Source: a bacterium (GTDB taxonomy: Bacteria > Bacillota_I > Bacilli_A > RF39 > UBA660). Taken from it: a DNA stretch of 64,000 nt. The translations under genes were made by a program, and so were the position numbers. Shown here one piece after another: positions 2,647 through 50,003 of the stretch; the stretch's first letter is position 1; each line of letters starts with the position of its first letter. The notes under the pieces were generated by a model. That model saw only the letters and a program-made list of their open reading frames with translations, was not told where the DNA came from and made no database searches. The stretch lies in contig JAWXUH010000006.1 of NCBI GenBank assembly GCA_044432745.1, forward strand, positions 1,375-65,374, written 5' to 3'.

Positions 2647-3537
2647 ATGAAAAAAAATAGACCAACTTATTATTTTATGGTTGCATGTTTTGCTATATTT
2701 TCAATATTATCTATATATGGACACTTTGCTATAAAAGGTGAAAAGGATTCTTTAATTAATCATAATAATGAATTCTATTACTTAGGTGAATTATATTTCT
2801 ATGATGGTTCTAATAACTTACTTGGTACTTATACTTGTAAAACTGAAAATTGTGGATATGCTCCTAGTACTAAAGAAACTAATATATCTAATTATTATGA
2901 AAAAGGAGAAGTATACAATCTAGGTATGCTTGAAGGTTATACTTTCATTGAAGATGGAGATACAGTATATCTATATAATTATTTAAATTCTACTGAAATG
3001 ATAGATTATGATGCAATTAAATTTTATAACGCTTATATAAATGAAGGTTATATATTTGTAAAATATCAAGGTAAGTGGGGTACATTTAACATACAGAATA
3101 TGTCAAATGTAATAACAGCTATATACGATGATCTATCTCTTGCACCTAATCTAAATGGTCTTTTATTATCTGGTACTCATATACTTGCTAGTCAAAGTGG
3201 AGTTAACTTTATAATAGATCAAGAAGGTAATACTTTAACTAAGAAATATTATGACTCTATTATAGATTATAATAGCAGATATATATTTTTAGAATCAGAT
3301 GTTATATACGTTAATGATTATGAAGGTGCTGAACTTCTTAGTTACCTTGATATAACTTCAATGTACAGATCTGCTAATTATTATGGATTTGTATCTGATG
3401 GAATGTTACATATGTATAATAATTTATATAATGATGAAGCTTTAGAAGTTATAGATATTGAAGGATATTCAAATATATCAATTGTTGAAACAGGTGGAGG
3501 ATACGAAGTTCATTCAAACGGCGAAGTAATAGAATAA
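2647..3537 (+). CDS. Membrane-anchored WG-repeat-like protein, paralog 2 of 3 (296 aa).
   Basis: RBS ggagag. N-terminal TM segment. Motifs LYFYDGSNNLLGTYTCKTENCGYA, DGDTVYLYN and QGKWGTFN (WG repeat). Confidence 0.75.
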   Translation: MKKNRPTYYFMVACFAIFSILSIYGHFAIKGEKDSLINHNNEFYYLGELYFYDGSNNLLGTYTCKTENCGYAPSTKETNISNYYEKGEVYNLGMLEGYTFIEDGDTVYLYNYLNSTEMIDYDAIKFYNAYINEGYIFVKYQGKWGTFNIQNMSNVITAIYDDLSLAPNLNGLLLSGTHILASQSGVNFIIDQEGNTLTKKYYDSIIDYNSRYIFLESDVIYVNDYEGAELLSYLDITSMYRSANYYGFVSDGMLHMYNNLYNDEALEVIDIEGYSNISIVETGGGYEVHSNGEVIE

Positions 3538-3551: not shown

Positions 3552-4922
3552 ATGATAAGAAAAATATTGTTATGTATTATATTTGTACTTATATGCACTG
3601 CTACATACTTACTTGTATCTGTTAATAATTTTAAAGTAGATGATTTAAAATTACACTATAGTGTTTACTTAGATGGAGAATTATCTTTATATGATGGAGA
3701 AGATAACTTATTAGGTAATTATACATGCACAGGAAGTAAGGAAACTTGCTTCCTGGCATATTCATACCAAGAGAGTAAACTTGATATAGAAAGATATGTT
3801 TATGAGGATATGAAGTCTATTGAAATGACTTTACCTATAAATGGTGGTGCATTTATACATGATGGGGATTTAGTTTATTATGTAGATTTAAGTAATGGTT
3901 CTGTATTAAAAGAATATAGAGACGTTAAATATCTAAATAATGATTATATAGCTTTGAAAGATACTGATGGTAATGTAAGTTTAGCAGAACTAAGTTCTTC
4001 AAAACTTACATATATTACAGAATCTATTTATACATATGTAGGTTCTACTAGTTATTCTAATAATTTCTTAGTAGAAGAGGGGGAAACTCAATATCTTATC
4101 AATTCTTCAGGTAATGAAGTAAGTACTAAGTTTAGTGGTAGTATTATAAATTATAATGATGATTTTATAATTGTTAAAGAAAATAACTTACATTATATTT
4201 ATAATTATAGTGGAGATAAAACTCTTCTTAATGGTTATACTTTTGCAAGACTTGATAAAAAATATATTTATGTAGTATCTAATAATTTATTAGTTATTTA
4301 CGATGTTAGTTTTAATAGAATAAATGATGAACCTATTAATTTAGGTACTGTTAATAACTGGGATACTTATAATATCTATAGTGATAGTCGTGAATATATA
4401 GATACTTCCGCAGTATTTACTAGTAGTAATAACTACTATGAAATAGTTATTACTACTAATACTGAAGAAAATACTGTTAAAATTGATAGTGATTTTACAG
4501 ATTATTATAGCTTTTCAAATAACTCTATATACTTTTACGAAGATCTTTATAAAGAAAATTTAAGAAGTAAATATGATTGTAGTGATAGTAAATGTAAATT
4601 CTTAGAATCAAGTAAACTTATAACACAAATAACAGAGGAATACTCTGATACATTTATAGATAATAGATATGTTGTTATAAATGATGAAGTAGGTTTTGTT
4701 TATGACATAAATTCAAAAGAGAAATCCTTTGAAATAATATCATTTCAAAGAATTTCTGAAAATGATATGTTATATACAAATAAAGATGGATTATATGGTT
4801 TGATATCTTTTGAAGATGGTGTTACGTCTTTAGCAGATGCTATATATGAGTCTGTTGTAGTTAACGATAATAAAATGATACTTAAGAGTAATAATAATTC
4901 TTATGAATATATTATAGAATAA
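3552..4922 (+). CDS. Membrane-anchored WG-repeat-like protein, paralog 3 of 3 (456 aa).
   Basis: RBS aaaagga. TM helix near the N-terminus. LYDGEDNLLGNYTC and DGDLVYYVD motifs. DGLYGLISFEDGV repeat near the C-terminus. Confidence 0.75.
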   Translation: MIRKILLCIIFVLICTATYLLVSVNNFKVDDLKLHYSVYLDGELSLYDGEDNLLGNYTCTGSKETCFLAYSYQESKLDIERYVYEDMKSIEMTLPINGGAFIHDGDLVYYVDLSNGSVLKEYRDVKYLNNDYIALKDTDGNVSLAELSSSKLTYITESIYTYVGSTSYSNNFLVEEGETQYLINSSGNEVSTKFSGSIINYNDDFIIVKENNLHYIYNYSGDKTLLNGYTFARLDKKYIYVVSNNLLVIYDVSFNRINDEPINLGTVNNWDTYNIYSDSREYIDTSAVFTSSNNYYEIVITTNTEENTVKIDSDFTDYYSFSNNSIYFYEDLYKENLRSKYDCSDSKCKFLESSKLITQITEEYSDTFIDNRYVVINDEVGFVYDINSKEKSFEIISFQRISENDMLYTNKDGLYGLISFEDGVTSLADAIYESVVVNDNKMILKSNNNSYEYIIE

Positions 4923-12362: not shown

Positions 12363-12438
12363 TGGTGGCTCCAGCAAGAATCGAACTTGCGACACAAGGA
12401 TTTTCAGTCCTTTGCTCTACCGACTGAGCTATGAAGCC
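12363..12438 (-). tRNA. tRNA-Phe (GAA)
   Basis: The reverse complement folds as a cloverleaf with anticodon loop CTGAAAA. CCA is encoded. Confidence 0.9.
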
Positions 12439-12441
12439 AAA

Positions 12442-12517
12442 TGGCGGTTCCGACCGGGATCGAACCGGCGATCTTCTGCGTGACAGGCAGACGTGATAAC
12501 CGCTACACTACGGAACC
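12442..12517 (-). tRNA. tRNA-Asp (GTC)
   Basis: Revcomp GGTTCCGTAGTGTAGCGGTTATCACG...CTGTCAC anticodon loop. CCA is encoded. Confidence 0.9.
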
Positions 12518-12531
12518 ATCAAAATTTAAAT

Positions 12532-12609
<78 letters not shown>

Positions 12610-12623
12610 ATATAATTATCAAA

Positions 12624-12717
12624 ATGGCGGAGGAAAAGGGATTCGAACCCCTGCGCCAGTTTCCCGACCTGCTGGTTTTCAAGACCAGTCCCTTCAACCG
12701 GACTTGGGTATTCCTCC
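12624..12717 (-). tRNA. tRNA-Ser (TGA)
   Basis: Revcomp GGAGGAATACCCAAGTCCGG... with a long variable arm. Anticodon loop CTTGAAA. Confidence 0.9.
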
Positions 12718-14571: not shown

Positions 14572-15423
14572 TTATTTTTTTAAACGTTGTTTTGATCTAT
14601 TAATAGAATCTAAAGTTGGTTTAACAATATCACTATTACTCATATCTAGATTATAAGTAGTTAGAAAACTTTGTACTGAATTTTCTCCTGTTATAACAGT
14701 TTTAAAATCTTTTAATATTTCTTTTTGCACATATGGCGTAGAATTTCTATATATATAATATAAAAATAGAGCATACGTATTTCCAGTATAATAAATATCT
14801 GCTTTAATACCTTTATTAGTGTTTGCTACATTTAACCACCTGTTGGTTTCACAATTTAGAAACTCTTCTGAATCCTCATGTAAGTATAAATACTCTAAAA
14901 AAATACTTATAAATTCGTCATTCGTTGTATCTGCAACATTGTATATGTTCTTTGATGCTAACATATGGCCTAATTCATGTACATATGTTGATTGTAAATT
15001 GGATATACTTACTTTTGATAGTGTTACATCGTCAAAAAAATATTGCCCCTCATGAGTAGAAATAGAACGTACTCTTGATTCGTATAATACATCGGTAAAA
15101 AAAATATCTACATCAAATAAATTTACGACTTTATGAGAATTTGCTAAAAAATTAGTAACTTGATCTTCATTAAAAATATTTGAATTAATAAAGTTATCTT
15201 CTATTACTTCAAATTGTGATGGATAAAGATATTTTATATCGAAATTTAATTCTCCAAAATATTGTTTAAAAAATTCTTGTACTTCTTTTTTTAAATTTTC
15301 TTGATCTTCCTTAGTAGAGTAGGATGGTATTATGCATTCATTAGAATTATATTTATGTACTTTGTATAAATGCTTAAGTATTTTTCTACTATTTCTTTTA
15401 TAATAGTTGTATTTAAAAAACAT
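14572..15423 (-). CDS. Putative zinc metallopeptidase (HExxH), paralog A.
   Basis: HELGHMLASKN motif. RBS aggggg. Shares FLEYLY.HEDSE and YYT.N.Y...LYY.YRN with the upstream paralog. Confidence 0.65.
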   Translation of the reverse strand: MFFKYNYYKRNSRKILKHLYKVHKYNSNECIIPSYSTKEDQENLKKEVQEFFKQYFGELNFDIKYLYPSQFEVIEDNFINSNIFNEDQVTNFLANSHKVVNLFDVDIFFTDVLYESRVRSISTHEGQYFFDDVTLSKVSISNLQSTYVHELGHMLASKNIYNVADTTNDEFISIFLEYLYLHEDSEEFLNCETNRWLNVANTNKGIKADIYYTGNTYALFLYYIYRNSTPYVQKEILKDFKTVITGENSVQSFLTTYNLDMSNSDIVKPTLDSINRSKQRLKK

Positions 15424-15503: not shown

Positions 15504-16403
15504 TTATCTTTTTCTTATATATTGTTTTGATCTATCTATAGATGATAATATTGGATTAAGTATATCATCGTTATAAAAATGTAGATTATATAATTGTCTA
15601 AAGTCTCTGATACTTCTTTTACCATTTAGAACTTGTTCTATGTTGTTTAACAAAATTCTTTTTTGAGATAAATTCATATTTCTATATAAATAATATAAAT
15701 ATACTGAATATATATTAGCTGTATAGTAGTAGTTATATTCCTTTGTATTTTTATTGAATTTACCGTATGTAATGTCACTCCATCTATTAGCTTCAGACTT
15801 ATAAAAAAATTCTGAATCTTCTTCCATAGATAAATATTCTAAAAAAACACTTAATAATTCTTCGTTTGGCTCATCAAATATATTAGCTTTCATATTATTT
15901 ACAAGAATATGTGTTAACTCATGAATATACCCTTGTTTTAAACCTGATAAATCTCTTAGTGATAATGTTATATCACCTAAGTAGTATGCAGCATCTATTG
16001 TCATATATCCATTAATGCTTGACGCTGAATGATGTTCATCCAATTTAACTTCTATATCATACATATTCATAGGTTTATAATTTCCTTTTAAGAATTCTCT
16101 TATAGTTTGATCATCTAAATCATCTTTGTTTTCAAATAACTCTTTCATTCTTTCAAAATCTTCTCTTACTATATATTTAGTGTTATGCTCTAAATTATTA
16201 AAATTCATAGAAAAGAATTCTTTTGTTTCTTCTTTGAAGTTCTCAATCTCACTTTGAGTAGCATCTATCAATCTTTTTTTAATAGTTAAATTATATTTTT
16301 GTAATGGTTTTAAATGTTTATATATTATATCACTGTTGTTTACAATTAATTTTTTTTTAAAAAACATATAGTCCTCCTCAAATCGGTTTTTGTATAGTAA
16401 CAC
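15504..16403 (-). CDS. Putative zinc metallopeptidase (HExxH), paralog B.
   Basis: HELTHILVNNM motif. RBS gaggagg. C-terminal SIDRSKQ motif is conserved with paralog A. Confidence 0.65.
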   Translation of the reverse strand: MLLYKNRFEEDYMFFKKKLIVNNSDIIYKHLKPLQKYNLTIKKRLIDATQSEIENFKEETKEFFSMNFNNLEHNTKYIVREDFERMKELFENKDDLDDQTIREFLKGNYKPMNMYDIEVKLDEHHSASSINGYMTIDAAYYLGDITLSLRDLSGLKQGYIHELTHILVNNMKANIFDEPNEELLSVFLEYLSMEEDSEFFYKSEANRWSDITYGKFNKNTKEYNYYYTANIYSVYLYYLYRNMNLSQKRILLNNIEQVLNGKRSIRDFRQLYNLHFYNDDILNPILSSIDRSKQYIRKR

Positions 16404-16684: not shown

Positions 16685-16761
16685 TGGTAGCGACGGAGGG
16701 ATTTGAACCCCCGACCTATCGGGTATGAACCGAGTGCTCTAGCCAGCTGAGCTACATCGCC
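16685..16761 (-). tRNA. Elongator tRNA-Met (CAT). A lysidine-modified Ile2 tRNA cannot be excluded from sequence alone.
   Basis: Revcomp GGCGATGTAGCTCAGCTGGCTAGAGC...TTCATAC loop, very similar to Bacillus elongator tRNA-Met. CCA is encoded. Confidence 0.8.
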
Positions 16762-16846: not shown

Positions 16847-17575
16847 ATGGTGAATTTAATGAAAGAATATAAAAAAATATTAATAACTTTAGCGGTTGTT
16901 GTAGTATTTATTGTATTAATAATATTAGGATATTTGACTCTTACAAGAGATAATAGTGTTGATATATATAATGATGTTACAATATTCTCAAAAGAATATG
17001 AAAGTTTAAATGGAGAAGAGTTGTCTGGTAAATTACTTTTAGAAGTAGATATTAACGATGAGGCAGTGATATATGAAAAAACTATTTTAGAAATATTAGA
17101 TATCATGAACAATGAATCTGCTCTTATTTATTTTGGTTTTGGAACGTGTCCTTGGTGTAGAAATATGATTGAAGCTTTAGTTGATTCTTCGGTAAGTAAA
17201 AATGAACCGATATATTATGTTAATATATCAAGTGTTAGAAATACTTATACATATGAAGCTGGGAATGTAGTAGAAACAAAAGAGGGGGATGAATCTTATT
17301 ATGAAGTAGTAGAATTTTTATCTGATTCTTTGTCTGAATATTATGTTTATGATGAAGACGGAGAAAAATACGATACTAATACTAAGAGACTTTATGCTCC
17401 TACAGTAATTACTGTTAAAAATGGTAGTTTAGTTGATATTTCATTTGGTACTGTAGATGAAGTAGAAGATCCTTATATTAAGTTAACAGATGAAGAGTAT
17501 AGTGATTTGTTACTAGAATATAATAATATGATAAATGATTTACAAACTGAAATGTGTAGTTTAGAGAGTTGTTAA
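16847..17575 (+). CDS. Membrane-anchored thioredoxin-fold thiol-disulfide oxidoreductase (CPWC active site).
   Basis: N-terminal TM helix. GFGTCPWCRNM CxxC motif. The start could be the ATG at 16859. Confidence 0.6.
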   Translation: MVNLMKEYKKILITLAVVVVFIVLIILGYLTLTRDNSVDIYNDVTIFSKEYESLNGEELSGKLLLEVDINDEAVIYEKTILEILDIMNNESALIYFGFGTCPWCRNMIEALVDSSVSKNEPIYYVNISSVRNTYTYEAGNVVETKEGDESYYEVVEFLSDSLSEYYVYDEDGEKYDTNTKRLYAPTVITVKNGSLVDISFGTVDEVEDPYIKLTDEEYSDLLLEYNNMINDLQTEMCSLESC

Positions 17576-17592: not shown

Positions 17593-18471
17593 GTGGCTAG
17601 AAAAGAAAAAATTGTAATAAAAGAAGATCCTTTAATACCTACAGTAATAGGTGTTATAGATAATAAAACTGTTAGTATGATATATTTGGTTGTCCTTTTT
17701 GTGATACTTATTGGTTTTGTTTATTATCTACCAGAAATTGAAACTTATATGAAAAGTTTAACTGCAGGAGATGATTCTCAATACTTTGAAACAGCAGAAG
17801 ATGAAGATGAAATAGTTGATCCTAATTCTTACGTTGAAGGTATGAGTTTAACAAGTCCTCACGTTACCCTTAATAACATTCAACTTTCTACAAGGACATT
17901 ATCTTTTAATATATTAAATAATACAACAGAAGATGTAAGTTTATATAATTTAAACTATTATTTGGAAATATATGATGAAGAATCAAATTTAATTAATAGA
18001 ATAAATTTTGCTGATATGATGTTTGAAGCATCTAGCTCAACAGAGTTTGTTTATGAGTTAAAAGCATCTGATGTAAGCTATTTTAATTTTTCAGTTATAA
18101 ATACTAGTATGTATCCATCAGTTGTTTTAAATAAAGATAGTGAAGGTAATCAAAATTTAGTTTGTGTTAAAGATAATATAGTTTTAACTTATTATTTTAA
18201 TAGCAATTTATTAAATAAAGTTATTCAAATAGTTAATATGGATGATGAAGAATACGAATATTATACTGAAAATTTAGATAATTATACATATTACGCTGGT
18301 GTAAGTGCTTATATAGAAGAAGATGATGTTTCGTCAGAATTTTATTTAGGTATTGATTATACTAAATACGATAAAGATTCTTTAACTGAGTTTTATTTAG
18401 ATTTTGAAAATAATACTTCAGCTAAAATAATAAATTTTGATCTTGTTAGTAATGGATTTGACTGTAATTAG
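17593..18471 (+). CDS. Hypothetical membrane-anchored protein.
   Basis: GTG start. TM helix MIYLVVLFVILIGFVYYL. No recognisable motif. Confidence 0.5.
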   Translation: MARKEKIVIKEDPLIPTVIGVIDNKTVSMIYLVVLFVILIGFVYYLPEIETYMKSLTAGDDSQYFETAEDEDEIVDPNSYVEGMSLTSPHVTLNNIQLSTRTLSFNILNNTTEDVSLYNLNYYLEIYDEESNLINRINFADMMFEASSSTEFVYELKASDVSYFNFSVINTSMYPSVVLNKDSEGNQNLVCVKDNIVLTYYFNSNLLNKVIQIVNMDDEEYEYYTENLDNYTYYAGVSAYIEEDDVSSEFYLGIDYTKYDKDSLTEFYLDFENNTSAKIINFDLVSNGFDCN

Positions 18472-18537
18472 TCAAATTTTTTTGTTCTTTTGTCGATTTT
18501 GTATATTTTTTAAATATTATACTCTATACTGATATGG

Positions 18538-18870
18538 ATGGTGAATATAATGCTTGATTTTTCAAGGTATGATAGGTGCGTGGTAATAGATTTTAGAAAA
18601 AAAATATGTTTAAAGGATTCGAAGTCTGCTGATGCATTCTTATTTCCTTACTTGCTTAAATCTAAGGAGATGACAGTGATTGGTAATTTTGAAGAACTGG
18701 ATAACATTGATCATATCGGTTTTAATTTTTTATATAAATTAAGGTGGGTTGTTAAGATTACAGGAGGTAATCTGAGTTTGATTAATGTTCCTACTAATTT
18801 AAAGAAAGATATTAGCAAACTTCGTATTAAAATAAACAAGGATTTTGATATGAAAGAAAAGGTTATATGA
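18538..18870 (+). CDS. SpoIIAA-like STAS-domain protein (anti-sigma-factor antagonist-like), with His replacing the phosphorylatable Ser.
   Basis: Aligns to SpoIIAA over VxxFExLxxxDxxG...GG...L.N. DSSG becomes DHIG. Overlaps the sigma gene by ATGA. The start could be the ATG at 18550. Confidence 0.5.
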   Translation: MVNIMLDFSRYDRCVVIDFRKKICLKDSKSADAFLFPYLLKSKEMTVIGNFEELDNIDHIGFNFLYKLRWVVKITGGNLSLINVPTNLKKDISKLRIKINKDFDMKEKVI

Positions 18871-19514
18871 TAATTGATGAAGATATTGTTAATGAAAATA
18901 TGAAATTAATTTTTAAAATTGCTACTTATTTTTATGGAGTCGAGAGAGAGGATTTATTACAAGCAGGTAAACTAGGGCTTGTAAAAGCATTTAATAAATA
19001 CGATAGTAATTCAGGTGCTAAATTTAGTACATATGCTTATGAGTATATATACGGTGAAATGTACCAGGTTGCATGTCGTAAAACTTTAAAAATTAATAAA
19101 GATACTTTAAGGTTATATAAACTTATTGAAAAAATAAGATATGAAGATACACAAATATTAGGATACATACCAAATAACGAGTATATAGCTAGTAAACTAG
19201 AGATGGATATACAAACTATAGATTATGCATGTATGAGTGCTAATACACTTATTTCTATGGATGATGAGACATCATCATATAGAGATATGCATGAAGTTAT
19301 TTGTGATAACAATACTATTAATGTAGATGATAAAATATTACTGGAGGATTCTTTAGAGAAATTAACAAATGAAGAAAAAGATGTTATAAGAAAAAGATAC
19401 TACTTTGATAAAACTCAAAGTGAACTTGCAAGAGAGTTTAATATGTCTCAAGTTAAAATTTCTAGAATAGAGAAAAAAGGTCTAGAAAAAATGAGAGTTC
19501 TTATTTCAAAATAA
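18867..19514 (+). CDS. Compact SigF/SigG/SigB-type sigma-70 family factor (215 aa).
   Basis: Region 2 (KFSTYAYEYIYGEM) and region 4.2 (RYYFDKTQSELAREFNMSQVKISRIEKKGLEKMR) match the SigF/G/B group. Confidence 0.75.
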   Translation: MIIDEDIVNENMKLIFKIATYFYGVEREDLLQAGKLGLVKAFNKYDSNSGAKFSTYAYEYIYGEMYQVACRKTLKINKDTLRLYKLIEKIRYEDTQILGYIPNNEYIASKLEMDIQTIDYACMSANTLISMDDETSSYRDMHEVICDNNTINVDDKILLEDSLEKLTNEEKDVIRKRYYFDKTQSELAREFNMSQVKISRIEKKGLEKMRVLISK

Positions 19515-19517
19515 AAA

Positions 19518-19577
19518 AATCTCAAGTAAACTTTTCCCTATAAAATAGGGTAACTAAGTTTATTGTTGAGATTTTTT
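19518..19577. terminator. Bidirectional terminator between the sigma gene and the convergent gene.
   Basis: aaatctcaag...ttgagattttttt with an inner ccctataaaataggg stem. Confidence 0.5.
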
Positions 19578-20969
19578 TTAACGTCTTTTTTTATATATAT
19601 CATCTTCTAATTTAATATTTATTTGTTCAGATAATTTTCTTTCATTTTCTATTTTTTGATTTTCTATTTCTTGCACTACAATACCGCTAATACGATTTTG
19701 ATTTTCAAGTTCTAATTGTTCTATTCTTATAGAATCATACATTGCTAATATTTGCATTTTTTTAGCATGTTCTATTCTTGTTAATACAGGTAAATCAAAT
19801 TCTTTTAATTTTTCTTTAAATATAAATAAGTAAAAATTTCTAGATTCAGCTGATAAATTAAATTCTGTTAGTCTATGTTCTACATATGATACAACAAATT
19901 TTTTAGAAAGTTCATCGTTAGCATGTCTTTTTATTACAACATCCATTTCAGTTAAATTTGCTTCTTCTTCAGTAAATAAATTACTTAATGTTTTATAGTA
20001 TTCTTCAATTGTTTCTGTTGTTCCATTTACATAACCTGTATAACTATTAACTTGAAGTGTTTTGTTAATACCATATATATTAATATCAACATTAAAGTTT
20101 TCTGGTACATCAAAAGCAACATTAACTGGAACTTTAGCTGTTCTATATCTTGCATTTAAAACACTAAATAAGAAATTTTCTTCAGCAGCAGTTAATATAA
20201 AGTTTGTATTGTCTAATACTTTTTTAAATAGTATATCTGCTAAATATGGTAAATAATCTGTTGGAACAGATAATAAATTATTATTTTTAGCAATTTCTTT
20301 TGCAAAAGGCAAATTGTCTAAAACAACACTTTTGGCATTCTTATCTGCTGCTTCTTGAGCTAATTTCATTCTTTTTTCTGCCATCGTTCTAGTAGCAGAA
20401 TTAACAGTTGTTCTTTGTTTTAAATTTTCACTATTATTTTTAATATTAATAGATGTTGAATCAACTTCATTTGAAGTTACTCTTTCACTTACAATACTAC
20501 TTGGTTCTTGATTTACTTCATTTAAAACAACTTTTTCAGTTTTAATTTTACTTGTTTCTTCTAAAACAGTAGCTTCTTTTTGTGTACCATTCATATTTTG
20601 AACAACTTCATTTTCAACTATTTTTTCTATTTTAAATGTTGTTTGCACAGGTTCTTCAGTACCTAAACTTATAATACTGATATTTTCAGTAAGTTCAATT
20701 CCATTAGTACTATTTATACCCATTTCTTTATTTCTTTTTTCAATTTCAATAGCAACTTCTTTATATAAAGTTTCTATTAATTTTTTATCTGTTGAATAGA
20801 TTTTTCTTTCAGTTTCTAAAGTTATACTTATTTTATTTTCACTATTAATTTCTTGTTCAGTCGTTGTCATTTTATTTAACACTTCAGCAGTTTTACCAGA
20901 TCCAGTCATTCTAGATAATATTGAACTTGGTATTTTATTATTTTGAAATTCTTTTTTTTCGTCTTTCAT
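19578..20969 (-). CDS. Hypothetical protein (~463 aa).
   Basis: ORF 19578-21029. Preferred start is the ATG at 20969, with RBS aggggg (revcomp of 20972-20985). No recognisable domain. Confidence 0.55.
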   Translation of the reverse strand: MKDEKKEFQNNKIPSSILSRMTGSGKTAEVLNKMTTTEQEINSENKISITLETERKIYSTDKKLIETLYKEVAIEIEKRNKEMGINSTNGIELTENISIISLGTEEPVQTTFKIEKIVENEVVQNMNGTQKEATVLEETSKIKTEKVVLNEVNQEPSSIVSERVTSNEVDSTSINIKNNSENLKQRTTVNSATRTMAEKRMKLAQEAADKNAKSVVLDNLPFAKEIAKNNNLLSVPTDYLPYLADILFKKVLDNTNFILTAAEENFLFSVLNARYRTAKVPVNVAFDVPENFNVDINIYGINKTLQVNSYTGYVNGTTETIEEYYKTLSNLFTEEEANLTEMDVVIKRHANDELSKKFVVSYVEHRLTEFNLSAESRNFYLFIFKEKLKEFDLPVLTRIEHAKKMQILAMYDSIRIEQLELENQNRISGIVVQEIENQKIENERKLSEQINIKLEDDIYKKRR

Positions 20970-21130
20970 TTTATAACCCCCTAGAACGTAATATTTACAC
21001 ATTTCGCTCACTTGTAACATATAATACACTTTTTGTGTGAAAAAGTCAAGTTTTTCTTATAAATACTTAGTTTTATACTAAAGTTTGTATAATATTTTGA
21101 TTTCTTTTTCATAATATAATTGGTGATTGT

Positions 21131-21568
21131 ATGAATAACAAGGATTATAATATATTTTTAAAGAAATTTGCTCCTAAGGAAAATAGACTAAAAAATTGTA
21201 TAGTATCCTTTGTAGTAGGTGGTCTTATCGGTTTATCTTCTGAAGTTCTTGTTGTATTTTTGATGATTAATTTTGGTTTTTCTAGAATTTTATCTGGATC
21301 CATTATAAGTATATTAGTTGTATTTATTGCCTCTTTATTAACTGCTATGGGAGTATTTGATGATTATGTATCTAAACTTAAATGCGGCCTTATTATTCCT
21401 ACTACAGGATTTGCTCATAGTGTTACTTCTAGTGCACTTGATTATAAAAAAGATGGACTAATTACTGGACTTGGTTCAAATGTATTTAAATTAGCAGGTT
21501 CAGTACTTCTTTATGGAATTATTAGTTCTTTCTTACTTGTGATTGTGAGGGTGATTATTGGTGTCTAG
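21131..21568 (+). CDS. spoVAC: Stage V sporulation protein AC.
   Basis: LKNCIVSFVVGGLIG, TGFAHSV and GSNVFKLAGSVLLYGI match SpoVAC throughout. Confidence 0.85.
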   Translation: MNNKDYNIFLKKFAPKENRLKNCIVSFVVGGLIGLSSEVLVVFLMINFGFSRILSGSIISILVVFIASLLTAMGVFDDYVSKLKCGLIIPTTGFAHSVTSSALDYKKDGLITGLGSNVFKLAGSVLLYGIISSFLLVIVRVIIGV

Positions 21569-22535
21569 TTATATTTTTAAAAATGTATATATAAAAGATT
21601 ATTATACTATTGCAGGTCCTATGGAAAAGGATGGTAAAATAAAAAACTTTAATGAATATTTAGATGATTTTTATTTCGGTGAAAAAACTTTTGAACAAGC
21701 TGAAGTTAAAATGCAAAAAAATGTTGTTAAAAATTTAATAGTTAGAAATGATATAACTGAAAATGACGTAGATTTTTTAATAGGAGGGGATCTTATTAAT
21801 CAAATATCTATATCAAGTTATTCTCATAGAGCATTTGATTTTCCTTTTTTAGGAATATATTCTGCATGTTCTACTTTCATAGAAGCTCTTCTTATAGGAA
21901 GTATTTTTACCGAAAATTATAAACATAAAAATGTTATTTGTTTAACAAGTTCTCATAATTTAACTGCAGAAAGACAATTTAGATATCCCGTTGAATATGG
22001 TTCTCCTAAAGTACATACTTCTACGTTTACAGCTACTGCAGCTGCAGGGACTATTCTTACACATGAAAAAACAAATATAAAAATAGATAGTGCTACTATA
22101 GGAAGTGTTATTGACAAAGGTGTTAATGATGTTAATCACATGGGAGCTGTAATGGCCCCAGCAGCAGCTGATACACTTAATAAACATTTAAACAATTTAT
22201 CTAGAGATATTAGTTATTACGATGTTATTCTAACAGGAGATCTTGGTATTGTAGGTGCTAAAATATTTAAAGAATATACAAAAAAAGTATACAATATTAA
22301 TATTAAAAAAACTATGGATGCTGGTTCTGAAATTTTTTTAGATAGTCAAGATACTTACGCTGGTGGAAGTGGACCTGCTTGCATTCCTATAGTTTTTTTT
22401 AATAAAATACTTCAAAATAAAAAATATAAAAAAATTCTATTAGTAGGAACAGGATCTCTTCATTCTCCTTGTCTTATTAATCAACATAATACTATACCAG
22501 CTATTAGTCACGTAGTAAGTTTGGAGGTTGCTTAA
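21558..22535 (+). CDS. spoVAD: Stage V sporulation protein AD.
   Basis: TTG start after gagggtga. AGPMEKDG, GGDLINQ, SSHNLTAERQFRYPVEYG, MAPAAADT, LTGDLG and AGGSGPACIP all match SpoVAD. Confidence 0.85.
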   Translation: MVSSYIFKNVYIKDYYTIAGPMEKDGKIKNFNEYLDDFYFGEKTFEQAEVKMQKNVVKNLIVRNDITENDVDFLIGGDLINQISISSYSHRAFDFPFLGIYSACSTFIEALLIGSIFTENYKHKNVICLTSSHNLTAERQFRYPVEYGSPKVHTSTFTATAAAGTILTHEKTNIKIDSATIGSVIDKGVNDVNHMGAVMAPAAADTLNKHLNNLSRDISYYDVILTGDLGIVGAKIFKEYTKKVYNINIKKTMDAGSEIFLDSQDTYAGGSGPACIPIVFFNKILQNKKYKKILLVGTGSLHSPCLINQHNTIPAISHVVSLEVA

Positions 22536-22886
22536 ATGAACTATTTATATGCCTTTTTATTCACAGGATTCTTTTGTGCTCTTGGTCAAATAATACTTGA
22601 TAATACTAAATTTACTCCGGGTCATATAACTAGTTCATTTACAGTACTAGGTTCATTTATGTCTTTCTTTGGTATATATGACTTTTTTTCTATAAACTGT
22701 GGTGCTGGAGCCAACGTAGTTATTACAAATTTTGGAAATGCACTTTATCAAGGTGGTATAACAGGTTATAAACAGATGGGTTTTATAGGTATCTTTTCCG
22801 GTTTACTTCAAAATAGTAGTGCCATTATAGTTTCTACTATAGTTTTTGCCTTTATTCTTAGTATTTTCTTTAAACCTAGAGGATAA
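22536..22886 (+). CDS. spoVAEb: Stage V sporulation protein AEb.
   Basis: 116 aa. FTPGH, GAGANVVITNFGNAL and FFKPRG match SpoVAEb. RBS ggagg. Confidence 0.85.
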   Translation: MNYLYAFLFTGFFCALGQIILDNTKFTPGHITSSFTVLGSFMSFFGIYDFFSINCGAGANVVITNFGNALYQGGITGYKQMGFIGIFSGLLQNSSAIIVSTIVFAFILSIFFKPRG

Positions 22887-25913: not shown

Positions 25914-27626
25914 AGTAAAGAAACGTTTATATTATTAGCTGTTATATATTATGTTGTGTCAATTATTTTTATAGTTGTTCTTTTGATGTTATTTAATAAA
26001 AGAATAGAAAAAAGATATAAGAATCAAATTGACACTCTTGAACGTGGTAAAAATCTAATTATTTCTACATCTATATTATCAGAATTAAATAAGGTGGAAA
26101 CACTTGCTAATAATGATGATCTTAAAAATAAGTATGAAAGCTGGAAAGAAAGATTTAATGTTATTAAAGATAGCGATGTATCAAGATTATCAGATGAGAT
26201 AAATGATATTGAAGCTTTATTTTATGAGAAGAACTTTAAAGAATTAAAACTTATTTTACTTAATGCTGAAATAAACTTAAATTCTCTTAAAACTAAATCT
26301 GAATTATTACTTGAAGAAATAAAAGAAATTACTACTTCTGAGGAAAGAAATAGAACTAATATTACTAAACTTAAATCTGAGTTTAGAGATATAATGTCTA
26401 CTTATAAAAACGATGAATTTTCATACGAAATAATCAAAAAACCAATTGAAGCACAATTTGAAAGTACTGATAAGTTATTTAAAGTATTTGAAAATTTAAT
26501 GGAAAAAAATGAATATACTGAAGTAAATAAAGTAGTTAAAGTAATAGAAGACATAATAAAAAATTTAACTGTTATTATGGAGGAATCTAAAACTATTATA
26601 TCTTTAGGTACTACATTAATACCTAGAAAAATAGAAGAAGTTATGTACAATGAAAGTAAACTTGAAAAAGATGGATTTAATCTTGATTACTTAAATATTG
26701 AATATAATAAACAAGAAGCAGAGAAGAAAATAGTAGATGTATTTGAAAGATTACAATCTTTAAATATAAAAGATTCATTATTTGAATTTAAAACTATTCA
26801 TGATTATTTTGATTCGTTATTAAGCGATTTTGAAAAAGAAAAAATTGCTAAGAAACATTTTGAAGATTATACTAGATCAATTATACTTAAATGTTCTAAA
26901 CTTGAAAAAATAAATAACGAACTTCTTAAAAAAATAGATGATATTAAATATAGTTATGATTTAACTGATGATGAAGTCAGTATTGTGTATGTTATTAGAG
27001 AAAGTTTATTAGACGTTAGAAGCGATTATGATAAAGTAATTGAATCTCACAGAGCTAAGAGAGAGCCGTTTACTAAACTTACTAAAAAAATGGAAAATTT
27101 AAAAATTATTCTGGTTAAAACTGAAGAGAAACTTAATTTAGCTCTTAGAACTTTAGGATCTTTAAAAGAGGATGAAAAAAGAGCAAGAGAACAACTTGAA
27201 GAAATTAAAGTTATATTACAAAAAACAAAAGAGAAAGTACGTTCATATAAACTTCCTTTTATACCTAAAAATTATCATATTGAGTTAGCAGATGCTATGC
27301 AAGCTATAGAATATATGAATGAAGAACTTGATAGAAGACCAATTTCTATTAAGACTCTTAATACAAGAGTTGATACTGCAAGGGATTTAGTTTTAAAAGT
27401 ATATTCTACAGTTAACGAAACTATTAAAACCGCTAAGATGGCAGAATCTACTATTGTTTATGGTAATAGATATAGAGTTACTAATAAAGAAGTAGATTTG
27501 AATTTAACAAAAGCTGAGAATGCTTTTAATAAAGGAAATTTTAAATTAAGTTTAGAAAATGCAATTAATGCAATTAATATAGTAGAACCAGGAATACATA
27601 AAAAATTATTGGAGGAATATAAATGA
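25914..27626 (+). CDS. ezrA: Septation ring formation regulator EzrA (N-terminal TM helix plus long coiled coil).
   Basis: ORF 25884-27626. Preferred start is the ATG at 25914 after aggtgga. The TM helix plus SEERNRTNITKLKSEFRD segment resembles EzrA (SEEKSREEIEQVRERY). The gene sits upstream of the cysteine desulfurase-thiI pair, as in Bacillus. Confidence 0.65.
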   Translation, partial: SKETFILLAVIYYVVSIIFIVVLLMLFNKRIEKRYKNQIDTLERGKNLIISTSILSELNKVETLANNDDLKNKYESWKERFNVIKDSDVSRLSDEINDIEALFYEKNFKELKLILLNAEINLNSLKTKSELLLEEIKEITTSEERNRTNITKLKSEFRDIMSTYKNDEFSYEIIKKPIEAQFESTDKLFKVFENLMEKNEYTEVNKVVKVIEDIIKNLTVIMEESKTIISLGTTLIPRKIEEVMYNESKLEKDGFNLDYLNIEYNKQEAEKKIVDVFERLQSLNIKDSLFEFKTIHDYFDSLLSDFEKEKIAKKHFEDYTRSIILKCSKLEKINNELLKKIDDIKYSYDLTDDEVSIVYVIRESLLDVRSDYDKVIESHRAKREPFTKLTKKMENLKIILVKTEEKLNLALRTLGSLKEDEKRAREQLEEIKVILQKTKEKVRSYKLPFIPKNYHIELADAMQAIEYMNEELDRRPISIKTLNTRVDTARDLVLKVYSTVNETIKTAKMAESTIVYGNRYRVTNKEVDLNLTKAENAFNKGNFKLSLENAINAINIVEPGIHKKLLEEYK

Positions 27627-42636: not shown

Positions 42637-42781
42637 AAACTCCTTTTTTAATTCGTATATAGTAACACTATAAAATGAAAAAAACAACATAATTGTTACT
42701 TTTTTCATTTTTTTATAATAACTTATTTCATGTGTGTTATTATATATATATGAAAAGTATTTAGAAGGAGAAAATCTACAA

Positions 42782-44194
42782 ATGTTTAGTAAAATTAAAA
42801 AAATAAGTATTCCTCAAGGGGAAAATAATGAAGATATAGTAGGTAGTGGTGATAATTATATCTACTGTATTGATGGAGCAACTGGTCTTAGTAAGATAAA
42901 TATTATGGATAAAGACAGTGATGCTATGTGGTTTGTAAAAAAAACTGCTTCATTGTTAGATACATTACTAATAGATAATAACAAATCTTTAAGTGATATA
43001 TTAAAACAATGTATGAAAGATATCGAATCAGAAATATTATTAAGAAAAGAAGAACTTTTTTTAGATGATTATGATTATCCAAGTGCAGGTATAGCTATTG
43101 CTAGAATTGTTAATAAAGATAATCTAGAAATTTTAAGATTAGGTGATGTTCTTGTAAATATATTTGATAAAAATAATAATATAGTTAATATGCATGATGA
43201 TAAATTGCCTGAACTTGATGATTATGCTATTAATATGCAAGTTCAGTTAGCAAAAGAAAATAACATATCAGTAAGGGAAGCTCGTAATCTTATTAATGAT
43301 ATTTTACTTGTTAATAGAAAAAAAATGAATACAGAAGATGGTTATTTTATATTAGATCCATCAGGAAATGGAATTGATAAAGCTGATATTGAAGAATTTA
43401 ATATATCTAATTTAGACAGTATTTCTTTAATGAGTGATGGATATTACTGTATATCTGATACTTATAATATAGTAGATAGTTTTAAATCCCTTCATATGGA
43501 AATGAGACTAAATAAATTACAATCTTTATATGATAAAATGCACTCTATTCAAGAAGAAGATTTAGATTACAACAAGTATCCTAGATTTAAAATGAGAGAT
43601 GATTCAAGTGTAATATTTGCATCATTACGTGAACGCAGTATAGTATTTGCTAGTAATAATAAAGGTAAGATAAAAGAAATAACAGATATAATCAAGGGTG
43701 TTTATATTCTTTCTCTTGATGATCTTGGAGTTGATATAGATGTTTTAGAAGATCAAAATACTTTTGAAAAGAATGCGTTAAAAAAAGCTAAAGAAATATA
43801 TGATTTAGTAGGTATACCTGTTATTGCAGATGATTCTGGATTATGTATTAAAGAACTTGATAATTGGCCAGGAGTTATTACAGATAGATTCTTAGGTGAA
43901 GGTGCTACTACAGAAGAAAAGAATGATTATATAATAAATAAGGTTTCAAAATTAAAATCAAGAGAAGCTTATGTAAATTGTTCTCTTTGTTATTATGATG
44001 GTGAGCAAACTATAATTGTTTCTGAAAAAATAGAAGGTAATATTTCTTTAGAAAAAAGAGGTATAAATGGTTTTGGTTTTGATGAAATATTTGAACTACC
44101 AAATAAAAAAACTTTAGCAGAACTTACAATTGATGAAAAAAATGAATTAAGTTCTAGAAAAAAAGCAGCTATGTCATTATTACAAAAAATCTAA
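42782..44194 (+). CDS. Fusion protein: N-terminal PP2C-like (SpoIIE-type) phosphatase-like domain plus C-terminal RdgB/Ham1 non-canonical NTP pyrophosphatase.
   Basis: C-terminus IVFASNNKGKIKEI...ADDSGL...GFGFDEIF matches the Ham1/RdgB family. N-terminus has CIDGATG and LMSDGYY, resembling PP2C DGxGG/SDG motifs. ORF 42734-44194, with the start ATG at 42782 after aaggagaaa. Confidence 0.6.
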   Translation: MFSKIKKISIPQGENNEDIVGSGDNYIYCIDGATGLSKINIMDKDSDAMWFVKKTASLLDTLLIDNNKSLSDILKQCMKDIESEILLRKEELFLDDYDYPSAGIAIARIVNKDNLEILRLGDVLVNIFDKNNNIVNMHDDKLPELDDYAINMQVQLAKENNISVREARNLINDILLVNRKKMNTEDGYFILDPSGNGIDKADIEEFNISNLDSISLMSDGYYCISDTYNIVDSFKSLHMEMRLNKLQSLYDKMHSIQEEDLDYNKYPRFKMRDDSSVIFASLRERSIVFASNNKGKIKEITDIIKGVYILSLDDLGVDIDVLEDQNTFEKNALKKAKEIYDLVGIPVIADDSGLCIKELDNWPGVITDRFLGEGATTEEKNDYIINKVSKLKSREAYVNCSLCYYDGEQTIIVSEKIEGNISLEKRGINGFGFDEIFELPNKKTLAELTIDEKNELSSRKKAAMSLLQKI

Positions 44195-45061: not shown

Positions 45062-45892
45062 ATGAAAAATAAAAATAAAGATTATCTAGTATGTATTGAT
45101 TCTGATGGTTGTGTAATAAATACAATGAATATAAAACATGAGAAATGTTTTGGGCCTTGTATTATAGAAGTATGGAATTTATATGAATATGAAGAATTGA
45201 TATTATCAAGATGGAATGACATTAATTTATATAGCAATACTAGAGGTATTAATCGTTTTAAAGGCATTGGTATGATTTTAAAAGAAATAGATACTTCGTA
45301 TAAAAAAATAGAAGATTTAGATAGTTATTTAAATTGGCTTAATGGCAATGAACAATTATCTAACGAAGATTTAATGAATTATATTGAAAATAATAGCGAT
45401 GAATGTTCTAAAAATGTACTTAAATGGTCTGATATGGTTAATAATAAAGTAGCTAGTTTAGATCCTTCTATGAAAGTTTCATTTGAAAAATGTGCAGAGG
45501 TTATTAAAAAAATAAAAACTTATGCAGATGTAGTAGTATTATCTGCTGCTAATAAAGCTGCTATTGAAAAAGAGTGGGAACACAACAATTTACTTCATTT
45601 AGTAGATGATATATACTCACAAGATATTGGTACAAAAGATTTTTGTATAAATGAACTTTTGAAGTTAGGGTATGATAAAAATAAAGTATTAAAAATGGGT
45701 GATGCTCCTGGTGATTTAGCAGCAGCTAAGAAAAATGGTGTTTATTTTTATCCAATTTTGTTTGATACACCAAATGAATCTTGGATTGAATTTGATGAAA
45801 TAGGTTTAAATAAGTTTATTAGTGATGATTACCAGTTATATGGAATTAAAAAAGAAGAAGAATTTAACAATCAATTTATTGGTAAGAATTAA
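45062..45892 (+). CDS. HAD-superfamily hydrolase.
   Basis: Motif I LVCIDSDGCVI. C-terminal KMGDAPGDLAAAKKNG (motifs III/IV). RBS aaggtg. Confidence 0.6.
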   Translation: MKNKNKDYLVCIDSDGCVINTMNIKHEKCFGPCIIEVWNLYEYEELILSRWNDINLYSNTRGINRFKGIGMILKEIDTSYKKIEDLDSYLNWLNGNEQLSNEDLMNYIENNSDECSKNVLKWSDMVNNKVASLDPSMKVSFEKCAEVIKKIKTYADVVVLSAANKAAIEKEWEHNNLLHLVDDIYSQDIGTKDFCINELLKLGYDKNKVLKMGDAPGDLAAAKKNGVYFYPILFDTPNESWIEFDEIGLNKFISDDYQLYGIKKEEEFNNQFIGKN

Positions 45893-46767
45893 TGAGTTTA
45901 ATAAAAACAATAAATGAACTTAAAAACGTATTTCCATCTATTGTAACTAATGAATTTATAAATACTATGCCTAGAAGAGAATTAACTGATTACGAAAAAT
46001 CTTTACCGTATTCTAAGTATTATTTTAAGGATATGGCAAAAATACCACAAGAAGATTTAGATATTGTTAACAAAGGTCCAGTAAATTCAAAAAGTGTAAT
46101 AGATATGCACAATATATCTAAATTATTTGATAAAGGATATTTAGAAATTGAAAATGGATATTGTTATATGAATGATGGAACAGGTTTTGCAGCTAGTAAA
46201 GTTTTTATGAAAGATGTAGAACTTGAGATGTTAGATTGGTGGTTTAATTGGCATCCTTTAGAAGATTTAAGATATGCTATTTGGTGTCCTGTTGCTCATA
46301 ATGGAACTAGTGTAAAAACCCCTAATGAGCATCTTGATTCAAGTGGAGTTGACTTAAAGGTAAGAAATTATAATAAGACTCACTATCCAGATGAAGGTTT
46401 TAATTTAAATGGACATGAAGTTTTAACTATTAATTTTAAAGATCCAAGTCAACTAGGTTTTGATATAAAAGATAATCATGTTTATCTTGCAAGTGTAACT
46501 CGTAGAGTATTATTTTTCAATTTACCAGTAGCAACATTTGTACACTGCGCAAGAAAAGTAGAAGGTGGAACTGAATTTAGAAGTAGGTATTACCAAAGTG
46601 TTTATATAAATAAAAAAGGTAAATTTAAAAAATCAATTATTAAGTTTCCAAAAAGTGTAGTAGAATCACTTGCTAGAAATAATTGTTTACATAGTTTAAC
46701 TGAATATAACAACTTAGCATCTATTTTACCAAGTTTGTATAAAGAAGAAAGAGGAGAAATAAAGTGA
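45892..46767 (+). CDS. Hypothetical protein, possibly a phloretin/DAPG-hydrolase (PhlG)-like fold. Function unassigned.
   Basis: 291 aa. WWFNWHPLEDLRYAIWCPVAH segment. Coupled to neighbours by ATGA and GTGA overlaps. Confidence 0.45.
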   Translation: MSLIKTINELKNVFPSIVTNEFINTMPRRELTDYEKSLPYSKYYFKDMAKIPQEDLDIVNKGPVNSKSVIDMHNISKLFDKGYLEIENGYCYMNDGTGFAASKVFMKDVELEMLDWWFNWHPLEDLRYAIWCPVAHNGTSVKTPNEHLDSSGVDLKVRNYNKTHYPDEGFNLNGHEVLTINFKDPSQLGFDIKDNHVYLASVTRRVLFFNLPVATFVHCARKVEGGTEFRSRYYQSVYINKKGKFKKSIIKFPKSVVESLARNNCLHSLTEYNNLASILPSLYKEERGEIK

Positions 46768-48239
46768 AAGAAAAAGATAATAAAAACGATGTTGAAAAAG
46801 ACATAGAAAAAGAAATAACTGAAGTTAGTGTAAAAAAGGCTAAATTATGGCAATTAGGATTATTTGCACTTAACAATTCGGCAACAAATGCATTTCATTT
46901 TTTCATGACATATATAGCATACTTTGCAAGTGGAGTTGGTGGAGTTGCTTTTGTTACTGCATCATACGTAATGACTGGTATGAGAGTCTTTGATGCATTT
47001 ACAGATCCTGTAATAGGATTTTTAATAGATAAGTTAAATTTAGGTAAGGCAGGTAAATTTAGACCTTGGATGTTATTAGGTAATGTTTTAATGACTATTG
47101 CTTTAATAATCCTAATATTTGGAATGACATCTGTTCCATCAAGTTTAAGTTTATTATTTTTTATAGTATGTTACTTCATATATATTTTAGGTTATACTTG
47201 CCAAACAGCTTGTACTAAAGCAGCACAAAGTTGCTTAACAAAAGATCCTAAACAAAGACCACTTATTTCAATGTTTGATTCACTATTTTCAATAATGTTA
47301 ATGGGTGGATATGGTATATATGTAACAAAGTTTTTAATACCTAAACATGGAGATTATAATGAAGCGTTATTTAATGAATTTGTAGTAGTAGCAATAGTAA
47401 TAGCATTTATATGTACTATACTTGCAATTATAAGTTTATGGAACGAAGATGTTGTTGCTCCAAGTAAGAAAGTTAAAAAAGAAAAAATTAAAATGTCTGA
47501 GTATGTAACTATTGTTAAGCATAATGATGCATTAAGAAAATTAATGCCAGCTGCTGCACTAGACAAATTAGCTGCTTTAGTAGCTAATAATCCGACAACA
47601 ACTTTAATATTGTTTGCTCTTATTATAGGGAATTATGAATTATCTGGAATGATGACATTCTTTATGTTACCTCCAATGATTGTTATTATATCTATAGGTA
47701 CAAAAATGTGTCAAAAACATGGTATGAGAAATGTTATATTATTCTCAAAATCAATATCTGTAATTATGTGTTCTATAATGTTCTTTATAATGATGTTTGC
47801 AGATATATCTTATATAAAAGAAGGAGGCGCTAACATTATGTTATATGTATTCTTATTCTTTTATATATGTGAAATGGCACTTAGATCATTTTGTACATCA
47901 ACATTTACTCCAATGATTGCAGATTGTATAGATTATGAACAATCAATTACTGGAAATGAGAATCCTGCAATGATTGGAACTATGTATTCTTTAGTAGATA
48001 AGTTTGTTTCAAGTTTATCTGCAACTGTAGCTGCACTTGCAGTAGCTGCAGTAGGTTTTAAAGAAGTTGCACCATCAGTTAATACTGAGCTTACAACTCC
48101 TTTATATATAGTAGGTATATTACTAGTATTATTACTTCCTATAATATCAAATGCATTTACAATTGTTCAAATGCTAATGTATCCATTAAGTAAAGAAAAA
48201 ATGGAAGAAATTCAATGTAAAATAAAGAAAGAGGTTTAA
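46764..48239 (+). CDS. GPH-family (glycoside-pentoside-hexuronide:cation symporter) MFS transporter, likely a glucuronide/hexuronide carrier.
   Basis: GTG start after agaggag. RVFDAFTDPVIGFLIDK signature. About 12 TM helices. Confidence 0.7.
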   Translation: MKEKDNKNDVEKDIEKEITEVSVKKAKLWQLGLFALNNSATNAFHFFMTYIAYFASGVGGVAFVTASYVMTGMRVFDAFTDPVIGFLIDKLNLGKAGKFRPWMLLGNVLMTIALIILIFGMTSVPSSLSLLFFIVCYFIYILGYTCQTACTKAAQSCLTKDPKQRPLISMFDSLFSIMLMGGYGIYVTKFLIPKHGDYNEALFNEFVVVAIVIAFICTILAIISLWNEDVVAPSKKVKKEKIKMSEYVTIVKHNDALRKLMPAAALDKLAALVANNPTTTLILFALIIGNYELSGMMTFFMLPPMIVIISIGTKMCQKHGMRNVILFSKSISVIMCSIMFFIMMFADISYIKEGGANIMLYVFLFFYICEMALRSFCTSTFTPMIADCIDYEQSITGNENPAMIGTMYSLVDKFVSSLSATVAALAVAAVGFKEVAPSVNTELTTPLYIVGILLVLLLPIISNAFTIVQMLMYPLSKEKMEEIQCKIKKEV

Positions 48240-48243
48240 ATAT

Positions 48244-49980: not shown

Positions 49981-50003
49981 TTAGACAGTAAGGAGAGATA
50001 AAA

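Follow-up and report, generated by a model that had tools for sequence, protein, structure and literature searches.

We analysed a 64,000-nucleotide stretch of a bacterial contig (JAWXUH010000006.1), referred to below as the window, which is very AT-rich (~25% G+C) and carries a gene pair for a SpoIIAA-like STAS protein and a compact SigF-type sigma factor. The two open reading frames (ORFs), 18538–18870 (+) and 18867–19514 (+), overlap by ATGA, the ATG of the second occupying 18867–18869 and the TGA of the first 18868–18870, as a first, sequence-only reading of this DNA had described. That reading gave the STAS protein 110 residues from the opening of its frame at 18538. Its most likely start, as judged from the sequence, is the ATG at 18550 (MLDF...), giving a protein of 106 aa (18550–18870, +), because the ribosome-binding site read at 18536–18544 (+; GGATGGTGA), the NCBI annotation (R3Y13_04425, 106 aa) and the N-termini of relatives all agree on it. 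In the relatives GGAAGGTGA or AGGTGA stands at this spacing from the start codon. Both the STAS and the sigma proteins are identical to NCBI proteins of metagenome-assembled genomes (MAGs) of an unclassified ‘bacterium’, and the pair is found on nine independent contigs, so the two-gene arrangement is not an assembly artefact.

The window STAS protein matches the Pfam model PF01740 with 20.9–21.1 bits (E = 3e-4), under the curated cut-off of 22.6 bits, and TIGR00377 with 17.6 bits, under the cut-off of 53.45 bits. Its relatives are recognized more readily, and 44 of 44 aligned members match PF01740 at E < 0.01 (best 5.6e-15). The profile built from these 44 members finds the SpoIIAA structures 1TH8 (1.5e-13), 1TID (1.9e-13) and 1AUZ (2.3e-12), with far weaker matches to other STAS proteins, namely TM1442 (5e-7), RsbV (0.1) and RsbS (0.2). 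The AlphaFold2 model of the window protein (predicted local distance difference test score 85.6, predicted template modelling score 0.78) shows alternating beta and alpha elements, and together with the Foldseek comparison it gives the four-stranded beta-sheet and four helices of the STAS fold. Among PDB structures the top match is unphosphorylated SpoIIAA (1H4Y), with a template modelling (TM) score of 0.83, and RsbV (6M36) is also among the top matches. The likeness to SpoIIAA that the sequence-only reading had proposed is therefore borne out by both profile and fold. Two conserved motifs are confined to the lineage and missing from canonical SpoIIAA, N-N-Y-L-x-P-x-L-L-K-H-K in helix alpha1 and N-K-G-K after helix alpha2. 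Furthermore, the 120 family members among the matches listed are all proteins of ~110 aa that consist of one domain, none being joined to a ligand-binding or transporter domain. The family was visible only through a genome scan anchored on the sigma gene; by comparison, a word-indexed search with the single STAS sequence returned only itself, and an exhaustive one nine distant relatives.

The D-H-I-G of the window protein (18709–18720) falls on D56-S57-S58-G59 of SpoIIAA in two alignments, one made by hmmalign with B. subtilis SpoIIAA and one of the family profile with Geobacillus SpoIIAA (1TH8). Key alignments made with the B. subtilis SpoIIAA and SigF references were cross-checked against PDB sequences. 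In this register the His corresponds to Ser57 and the Ile (codon 18715–18717) to Ser58. Helix alpha2 begins at residue 55 in the AlphaFold model, so the Ile sits at the N-terminus of this helix, like Ser58, and the site holds neither Ser nor Thr. The sequence-only reading was thus right that the phosphorylatable Ser is absent, but it is Ile, not His, that stands in its place.

The same position was compared in 77 distinct proteins of the lineage. The Ser58 column contains S in 34, A in 8, V in 8, T in 7, D in 5, P in 3 and I in 3, the others being E (2), C (2), L (2), N (1), K (1) and Q (1), so that Ser or Thr is present in only 41 of 77. By comparison, with B. subtilis SpoIIAA included, 75 of the 78 sequences keep the flanking Asp, and all 78 the Gly. 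Within the largest cluster at 65% identity the column is mixed (S 23, T 6, D 3, E 2, P 2, C 1, N 1), and in other clusters it is fixed as V or A. Judged by this alignment, the acceptor residue is free to vary and has been substituted many times independently, because the replacements are scattered inside the largest cluster and V or A is fixed in others.

The adjoining sigma factor (18867–19514, +) has 215 aa, as previously read, and belongs to a family of 205–222-aa sigma factors. It matches Pfam Sigma70_r2 (5.7e-9) and Sigma70_r4 (5.2e-13), and weakly Sigma70_r3 (8.7e-4), so that regions 2, 3 and 4 are all represented. Its assignment to the SigF/G/B group is upheld by the SigB/F/G subfamily model TIGR02980 (123 bits, E = 1.2e-35, under the curated cut-off). 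The SigF equivalog model TIGR02885 gives 115.8 bits and its cut-off of 321.45 bits is not reached; among the sporulation sigma models it is nevertheless the best, ahead of SigG (75–87 bits), SigK (59–65 bits) and SigB (57 bits). Consistent with this ranking, the closest solved structure is sigma-F in its complex with SpoIIAB (1L0O_C, E = 1.9e-23), ahead of all SigA/RpoD chains. The protein is not full length. The sequence-only reading had it ~40 aa short of SigF; in the alignment ~20–35 N-terminal residues of canonical SigF are absent, and the ORF is not extendable upstream, because no start codon lies between its own and the preceding stop. The N-terminal segment is also gone, and the sigma 205–222 aa long, in every locus that lacks the kinase.

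No gene lies between the STAS and sigma genes: the STAS stop overlaps the sigma start, where a cognate GHKL anti-sigma kinase gene would directly follow STAS, and the earlier observation that spoIIAB/rsbW is missing from between them holds. Our kinase and phosphatase searches covered the 64-kb window of this genome and, for each relative, 20 kb. The relatives form a set of 88 non-redundant loci (~1.3 Mb) picked through the sigma gene, in which the STAS gene was found with a local hidden Markov model. The window has 57 ORFs of 90 aa or more, and a Pfam scan of every one of them detected no HATPase_c/GHKL domain. With the real SpoIIAB of one distant relative (L093) as query, phmmer and tblastn found no SpoIIAB homologue in the window or in the ~1.3 Mb of related loci, and 0 of the 88 related loci has one within 10 kb. 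Searches with B. subtilis SpoIIAB and RsbW sequences were also negative. No SpoIIE-domain match was found in the window, where the only PP2C-like sequence is a PP2C_2 match at 42734–43640 (E = 1.8e-4, 21.5 bits), under the cut-off of 24 bits. It belongs to a 486-aa ORF (42734–44194, +) with an unusual pairing, in which the N-terminal 300 aa, weakly similar to PP2C_2, are fused to a clear Ham1/RdgB ITPase (E = 2.6e-52).

A KEGG-orthology presence/absence survey (Microb Genom 2024; PMC10868615) reports spoIIAB and spoIIE as reduced or absent in RF39 genomes. This survey of RF39, RFN20 and ML615J-28 deals with gene content only and leaves aside the promoters, the shortening of sigma, the phospho-site and the retention of spoIIAA; spoIIAA and sigF are unmentioned in its main text, and its supplement holds no per-gene table for either. 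Among 405 sigma relatives obtained by scanning species-representative genomes, the 80 top-scoring ones come from gut MAGs whose names read uncultured Bacilli, Tenericutes or Mycoplasma sp., such as Mycoplasma sp. CAG:776, Candidatus Onthocola and Candidatus Caccenecus. Their names and gene content indicate that they probably belong to the order RF39, since with spoIIAB missing and spoVAD present the pattern fits RF39 better than RFN20 or ML615J-28 as described in that survey.

In 83 of the 88 loci the STAS gene adjoins sigma, ending between –32 and +12 nt from the sigma start with no gene between them, and in ~65 of 88 spoVAC-AD-AEb comes right after sigma. The kinase-less pair is therefore a trait of the lineage, shared by most of it and by hundreds of species, and not a local accident. 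Besides spoVA, no third conserved neighbour of the pair was found in the 88 loci; 18 of them have a dacF-like Peptidase_S11 gene upstream. The distant relative L093, whose sigma (P0090) has 36% identity, shows the order STAS (100 aa)–HATPase_c_2 (139 aa)–sigma (240 aa)–spoVAC-AD-AEb, followed by spoIIIA genes. Judged by gene order, the window locus is this synteny block minus the kinase. The loci form a graded series of loss, with three genes in L093, two (STAS–sigma) in most loci, and sigma only in L009, L097, L098, L012 and L024. The sigma-only loci have the 0A-box promoter directly before sigma and spoVAC-AD-AEb behind it, and the 205-aa clade among them (L009, L097, L098) has lost another ~10 aa from the stretch between regions 3 and 4.

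Two further arrangements were noted in the comparison. An abundant, separate group (L091/L092, 5708–6669; up to 532 member sequences per cluster) encodes 222-aa compact sigmas preceded by a 97-aa degenerate STAS-like protein in which the Gly of D-x-x-G is gone; the group has no kinase and no adjoining spoVA, and a Spo0A box is still present upstream. A 325-aa protein (P0085, L094) that looked like a natural STAS–sigma fusion was rejected, as the translation of its locus under code 11 differs; the Trp at the junction is the STAS stop TGA read under code 4, a gene-calling artefact that calls for caution with annotations in this genome group.

Selection on the two genes was estimated by a simple Nei–Gojobori calculation over 277 pairwise comparisons with a saturation filter of dS < 2.5. 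The median ratio of nonsynonymous to synonymous substitution rates (dN/dS) is 0.15 for STAS and 0.19 for sigma, and by this estimate purifying selection acts on the STAS gene. Conservation of STAS exceeds that of sigma in several pairs, for example with 98% versus 79% identity.

Conserved regulatory signals flank the pair. Upstream of the operon promoter lies a Spo0A-box-like element, TTTGTCGAT (18489–18497, +), for which the relatives give the consensus TTTGTCGAA. In 77 of 82 loci a TGTCGAA box stands at a fixed distance of ~72 nt upstream of the STAS start, as compared with 3% of random 230-nt windows; by the B. subtilis 0A-box consensus it would be bound by Spo0A. Downstream of the box, the relatives have TGTTTAAA and then a –10-like element, CTATATT, which reads CTATACT in the window (18524–18530, +) and lies in a block conserved in at least 80% of the 82 aligned upstream regions. 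This is a putative sigma-A- or sigma-H-type promoter. A second predicted promoter, GTATA-N18-CATAATA (21087–21116, +), precedes spoVAC. The general form G[CTA]ATA-N16-19-[CA]A[TC]A[ACT]TA, in shorter notation G[T/C]ATA-N17/18-CATAATA, is found before spoVAC in 63 of 66 loci against a background of 1%, and from B. subtilis consensus sequences we take it to be a sigma-G/F-type forespore promoter; the sigma factor that would read it is assigned by the same consensus. A generic promoter scan returned sites at chance level in this AT-rich DNA, and the aligned upstream regions were informative instead. The STAS gene thus appears to lie in a putatively Spo0A-controlled operon with sigF next to spoVA, and the conservation of Spo0A-box and forespore-type signals argues for a working Spo0A-initiated sporulation programme.

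The spoIIA–spoVA neighbourhood suggested by the sequence-only reading is present, with spoVAC-AD-AEb at 21131–22886, but these genes do not lie directly downstream of sigma. They comprise spoVAC (21131–21568, +; SpoVAC_SpoVAEB E = 7.5e-25, TIGR02838 E = 6.4e-38), spoVAD (21558–22535, +; Pfam SpoVAD E = 4.9e-106) and spoVAEb (22536–22886, +; TIGR02839 E = 4.1e-30). Between sigma and spoVAC a 483-aa ORF on the opposite strand (19578–21029, –) is inserted, which has no Pfam or NCBIfam match, stands outside the module and is specific to this organism; in relatives without it, spoVAC starts ~45 nt after sigma. A long inverted repeat, AAAAAAATCTCAA...TTGAGATTTTTTTT (19513–19579), separates the convergent sigma gene and 483-aa ORF and, from its sequence, is a probable bidirectional terminator. 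A generic scan called no terminator in this DNA, and it missed this repeat because the stem is AT-rich.

We consider it reasonably likely that the locus is the orthologue of the spoIIA (sigma-F) operon with spoIIAB deleted, in a genome-reduced, uncultured lineage of gut Bacilli, probably the order RF39. This reading follows from SpoIIAA being the best profile and fold match of the STAS protein, sigma-F being the best match of the sigma factor, the gene order of L093, and the dacF-like gene upstream. We infer that the SpoIIAB kinase/SpoIIE phosphatase cycle has gone from the lineage and that the STAS protein performs a phosphorylation-independent job there. Of the two outcomes named in the sequence-only reading, that the module works differently or that it is non-functional, the former is favoured and the latter disfavoured, because of the dN/dS of 0.15, the translational coupling to sigma and the conserved Spo0A-box promoter.

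How the STAS protein might act is a more tentative matter. As one possibility, proposed from gene order and conservation, it may contact sigma-F directly and serve as a holding or escort factor. Such direct action is favoured among the mechanisms considered because the two genes are coupled and overlap, no third gene is conserved with them, the STAS protein has a new conserved surface, and the change in sigma co-occurs. Translational coupling would supply the two proteins in ~1:1 amounts, the contact would be made through the lineage-specific conserved surface of helices alpha1 and alpha2, and sigma-F activity would be set by Spo0A-driven transcription and by release from the STAS protein, without a kinase/phosphatase partner switch. 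The wider claim, that a minimal two-protein STAS–sigma module replaces the SpoIIAA/SpoIIAB/SpoIIE switch in a large clade of gut Bacilli and that forespore sigma-F activation there is of an undescribed type, must be called doubtful.

Several observations weigh against this interpretation. Canonical SpoIIAA does not bind sigma-F, and the lineage, which is uncultured, is not known to have been seen sporulating. The STAS gene is missing from several species and from one entire clade; the STAS protein is dispensable in some backgrounds, because the sigma-only loci keep the promoter, sigma and spoVA. In 53% of the proteins the acceptor position still holds Ser or Thr, perhaps for structural reasons, since Ser, Thr, Asp and Asn are good helix N-cap residues. 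In the sub-lineage of the window the STAS protein diverges faster than sigma (40% versus 62% identity to the nearest relative). Finally, the SpoIIAB and SpoIIE searches for this MAG cover its 64-kb window, and the absence reported in print for both genes was called by KEGG orthology in genomes that evolve fast.

The next most likely explanation is that the STAS protein antagonizes an unrelated anti-sigma encoded elsewhere in the genome. An improbable alternative is that the classical partner switch is intact, with a SpoIIAB-like kinase and a phosphatase encoded elsewhere, either relocated or too diverged to be recognized, and the STAS protein antagonizing that kinase; in that case the Ile protein of this organism, with no residue to phosphorylate, would antagonize constitutively, as SpoIIAA-S58A does in B. 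subtilis. The Ser or Thr of 41 proteins, the conserved D-x-x-G frame, the 64-kb and 20-kb reach of the searches and the sub-threshold PP2C_2-like domain all speak for such a switch. However, free variation is not expected at the phosphorylation site that a kinase requires, as in SpoIIAA and RsbV, and here 36 of the 77 proteins carry A, V, I, L, P, K, Q, C, D or E at the acceptor position, recurrently and inside close clusters. Moreover, no HATPase_c domain was found in the 88 loci or the window, the canonical order, as in L093, holds the kinase between both genes, and the reported reduction or absence of spoIIAB and spoIIE in RF39 (PMC10868615) points the same way.

We also weighed the idea that the STAS protein is kept for a function unrelated to sigma-F, involving another protein or a small ligand, its adjacency being an inheritance of the operon and sigma-F being controlled purely by Spo0A-driven transcription. 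We regard this as unlikely. It would account for the close pairs with 98% STAS and 79% sigma identity, in which constraint is not simply tied to sigma, and for the STAS-less clades that keep sigma, promoter and spoVA; STAS domains are versatile, and MlaB and SLC26 STAS domains are among the structural matches. It fits less well with the tight spacing of the two genes, which in nearly all loci overlap at stop and start or lie no more than 12 nt apart, with the finding that STAS was never seen apart from the sigma gene (in a sample selected through sigma), and with the uniform single-domain architecture of the family members listed. Least probable, in our view, is that the module is a leftover of sporulation undergoing decay, in a lineage that is adapted to a host, no longer forms spores and is losing STAS and perhaps sigma. 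The graded series from three genes to two to sigma only suits such decay, as do the reduced genomes and the repeated loss of sporulation in related orders (PMC10868615), and a machine-learning tool gives RF39 MAGs a 0% sporulation probability (PMC12536801). That prediction is perhaps partly circular, because spoIIAB is among the nine genes common to all the spore-formers predicted by this tool (PMC12536801). Decay is further opposed by the low dN/dS of both genes, ORFs intact in 83 of 88 loci, a Spo0A box and forespore promoter conserved in 94–95% of loci, and retention of spoVAC-AD-AEb in ~65 of 88.

Comparison with known systems places the pair nearest to the spoIIA operons of B. subtilis and Geobacillus (1TH8, 1L0O, 1AUZ, 1H4Y), with which it shares the SpoIIAA fold and profile, the sigma-F match, the adjoining spoVA genes and the Spo0A box, and in some relatives the dacF-like gene upstream. 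The obvious differences are the lack of a SpoIIAB gene, the replacement of Ser58 by Ile here and its variability in the lineage, the loss of the N-terminal 20–35 residues of sigma and the lineage-specific STAS motifs; SpoIIE is likewise reported absent from the probable order, a point taken from the literature only. With the RsbV–RsbW–sigma-B system (6M36) it has in common the STAS fold (Foldseek TM 0.76) and the SigB/F/G sigma family, which is the best NCBIfam match. It differs from that system in its profile (RsbV 0.1 versus SpoIIAA 1.5e-13), in having no RsbW and in its sporulation rather than stress context. The RsfA/RsfB–UsfX–SigF system of M. tuberculosis (8IH8) offers a precedent for STAS antagonists that act without phosphorylation by the cognate anti-sigma, RsfA being redox-controlled. 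That system, however, keeps the GHKL-fold anti-sigma UsfX as the target of its STAS proteins, and no such partner was found at the window locus. MlaB and SLC26/SulP STAS domains are likewise phosphorylation-independent binding modules; unlike the window STAS protein, they are parts of transporters, with marginal profile matches (E above 0.05) and unrelated contexts.

The remainder of the window holds several features beyond the module. Upstream of the pair, a 292-aa single-pass membrane protein (17593–18471, +) with a faint Sigma_reg_N match (E = 0.014) was considered as a replacement anti-sigma and rejected, as it is not among the conserved neighbours and is seen only in the closest relative, L096. 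A membrane-anchored thioredoxin-like protein (16847–17575, +; PedC/BrcD-type match, E = 5.8e-9, under the cut-off) is also conserved in L096 only. Tandem paralogues at 14572–15423 (–) and 15504–16403 (–), with 36% identity (E = 3e-55) and no family match, carry an HExxH motif (YVHELGHML and YIHELTHIL) and possibly represent an undescribed metalloprotease family. Three tandem paralogues of ~390 aa (28823–29992, 30044–31234 and 31247–32422, all +; 38–42% identity, no Pfam family) sit between an IscS-like aminotransferase (27623–28747) and ThiI (32453–33628), and three adjoining large ORFs at 651–2633, 2647–3537 and 3552–4922 (+) are distant paralogues (25–28% identity), again with no Pfam family. 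A cluster for hexuronate/sugar-acid utilization (45062–55039, +), with a G+C content of 0.28–0.32 that exceeds the rest of the window, encodes HAD, DAPG-hydrolase-like, MFS_2 transporter, GH3, UxuA and UxaC proteins, a mannitol-dehydrogenase-type oxidoreductase and a KDPG aldolase. Six tRNA genes, all on the (–) strand, lie at 12363–12717 (Phe, Asp, Met, Ser), 16685–16761 (Met) and 37596–37671 (Asn), opposite to most protein genes, which are on the (+) strand. Finally, a 259-aa ORF (61401–62180, +) has a weak HipA_2-like kinase match (E = 2.1e-5, under the cut-off), and a TPR protein adjoins it on the opposite strand.

The phospho-switch of SpoIIAB and SpoIIE is the textbook account of why sigma-F activity is confined to the forespore, and the three-protein SpoIIAA/SpoIIAB/SpoIIE switch is regarded as universal among endospore formers. 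By comparison, a common gut lineage keeps a sigF gene with a Spo0A box, a SpoIIAA-like protein under selection and spoVA genes with forespore-type promoters, the kinase being gone and the phospho-site freed. As far as we found, a retained, phosphorylation-free SpoIIAA is apparently undescribed in the literature, the absence of spoIIAB and spoIIE from RF39 having been noted already in one survey (PMC10868615). This lineage will be misclassified wherever a tool takes spoIIAB to mark the capacity to sporulate. If the lineage sporulates, its compartment-specific activation of sigma-F must come about in another way, and the minimal needs of sporulation’s first cell-fate decision become directly testable.

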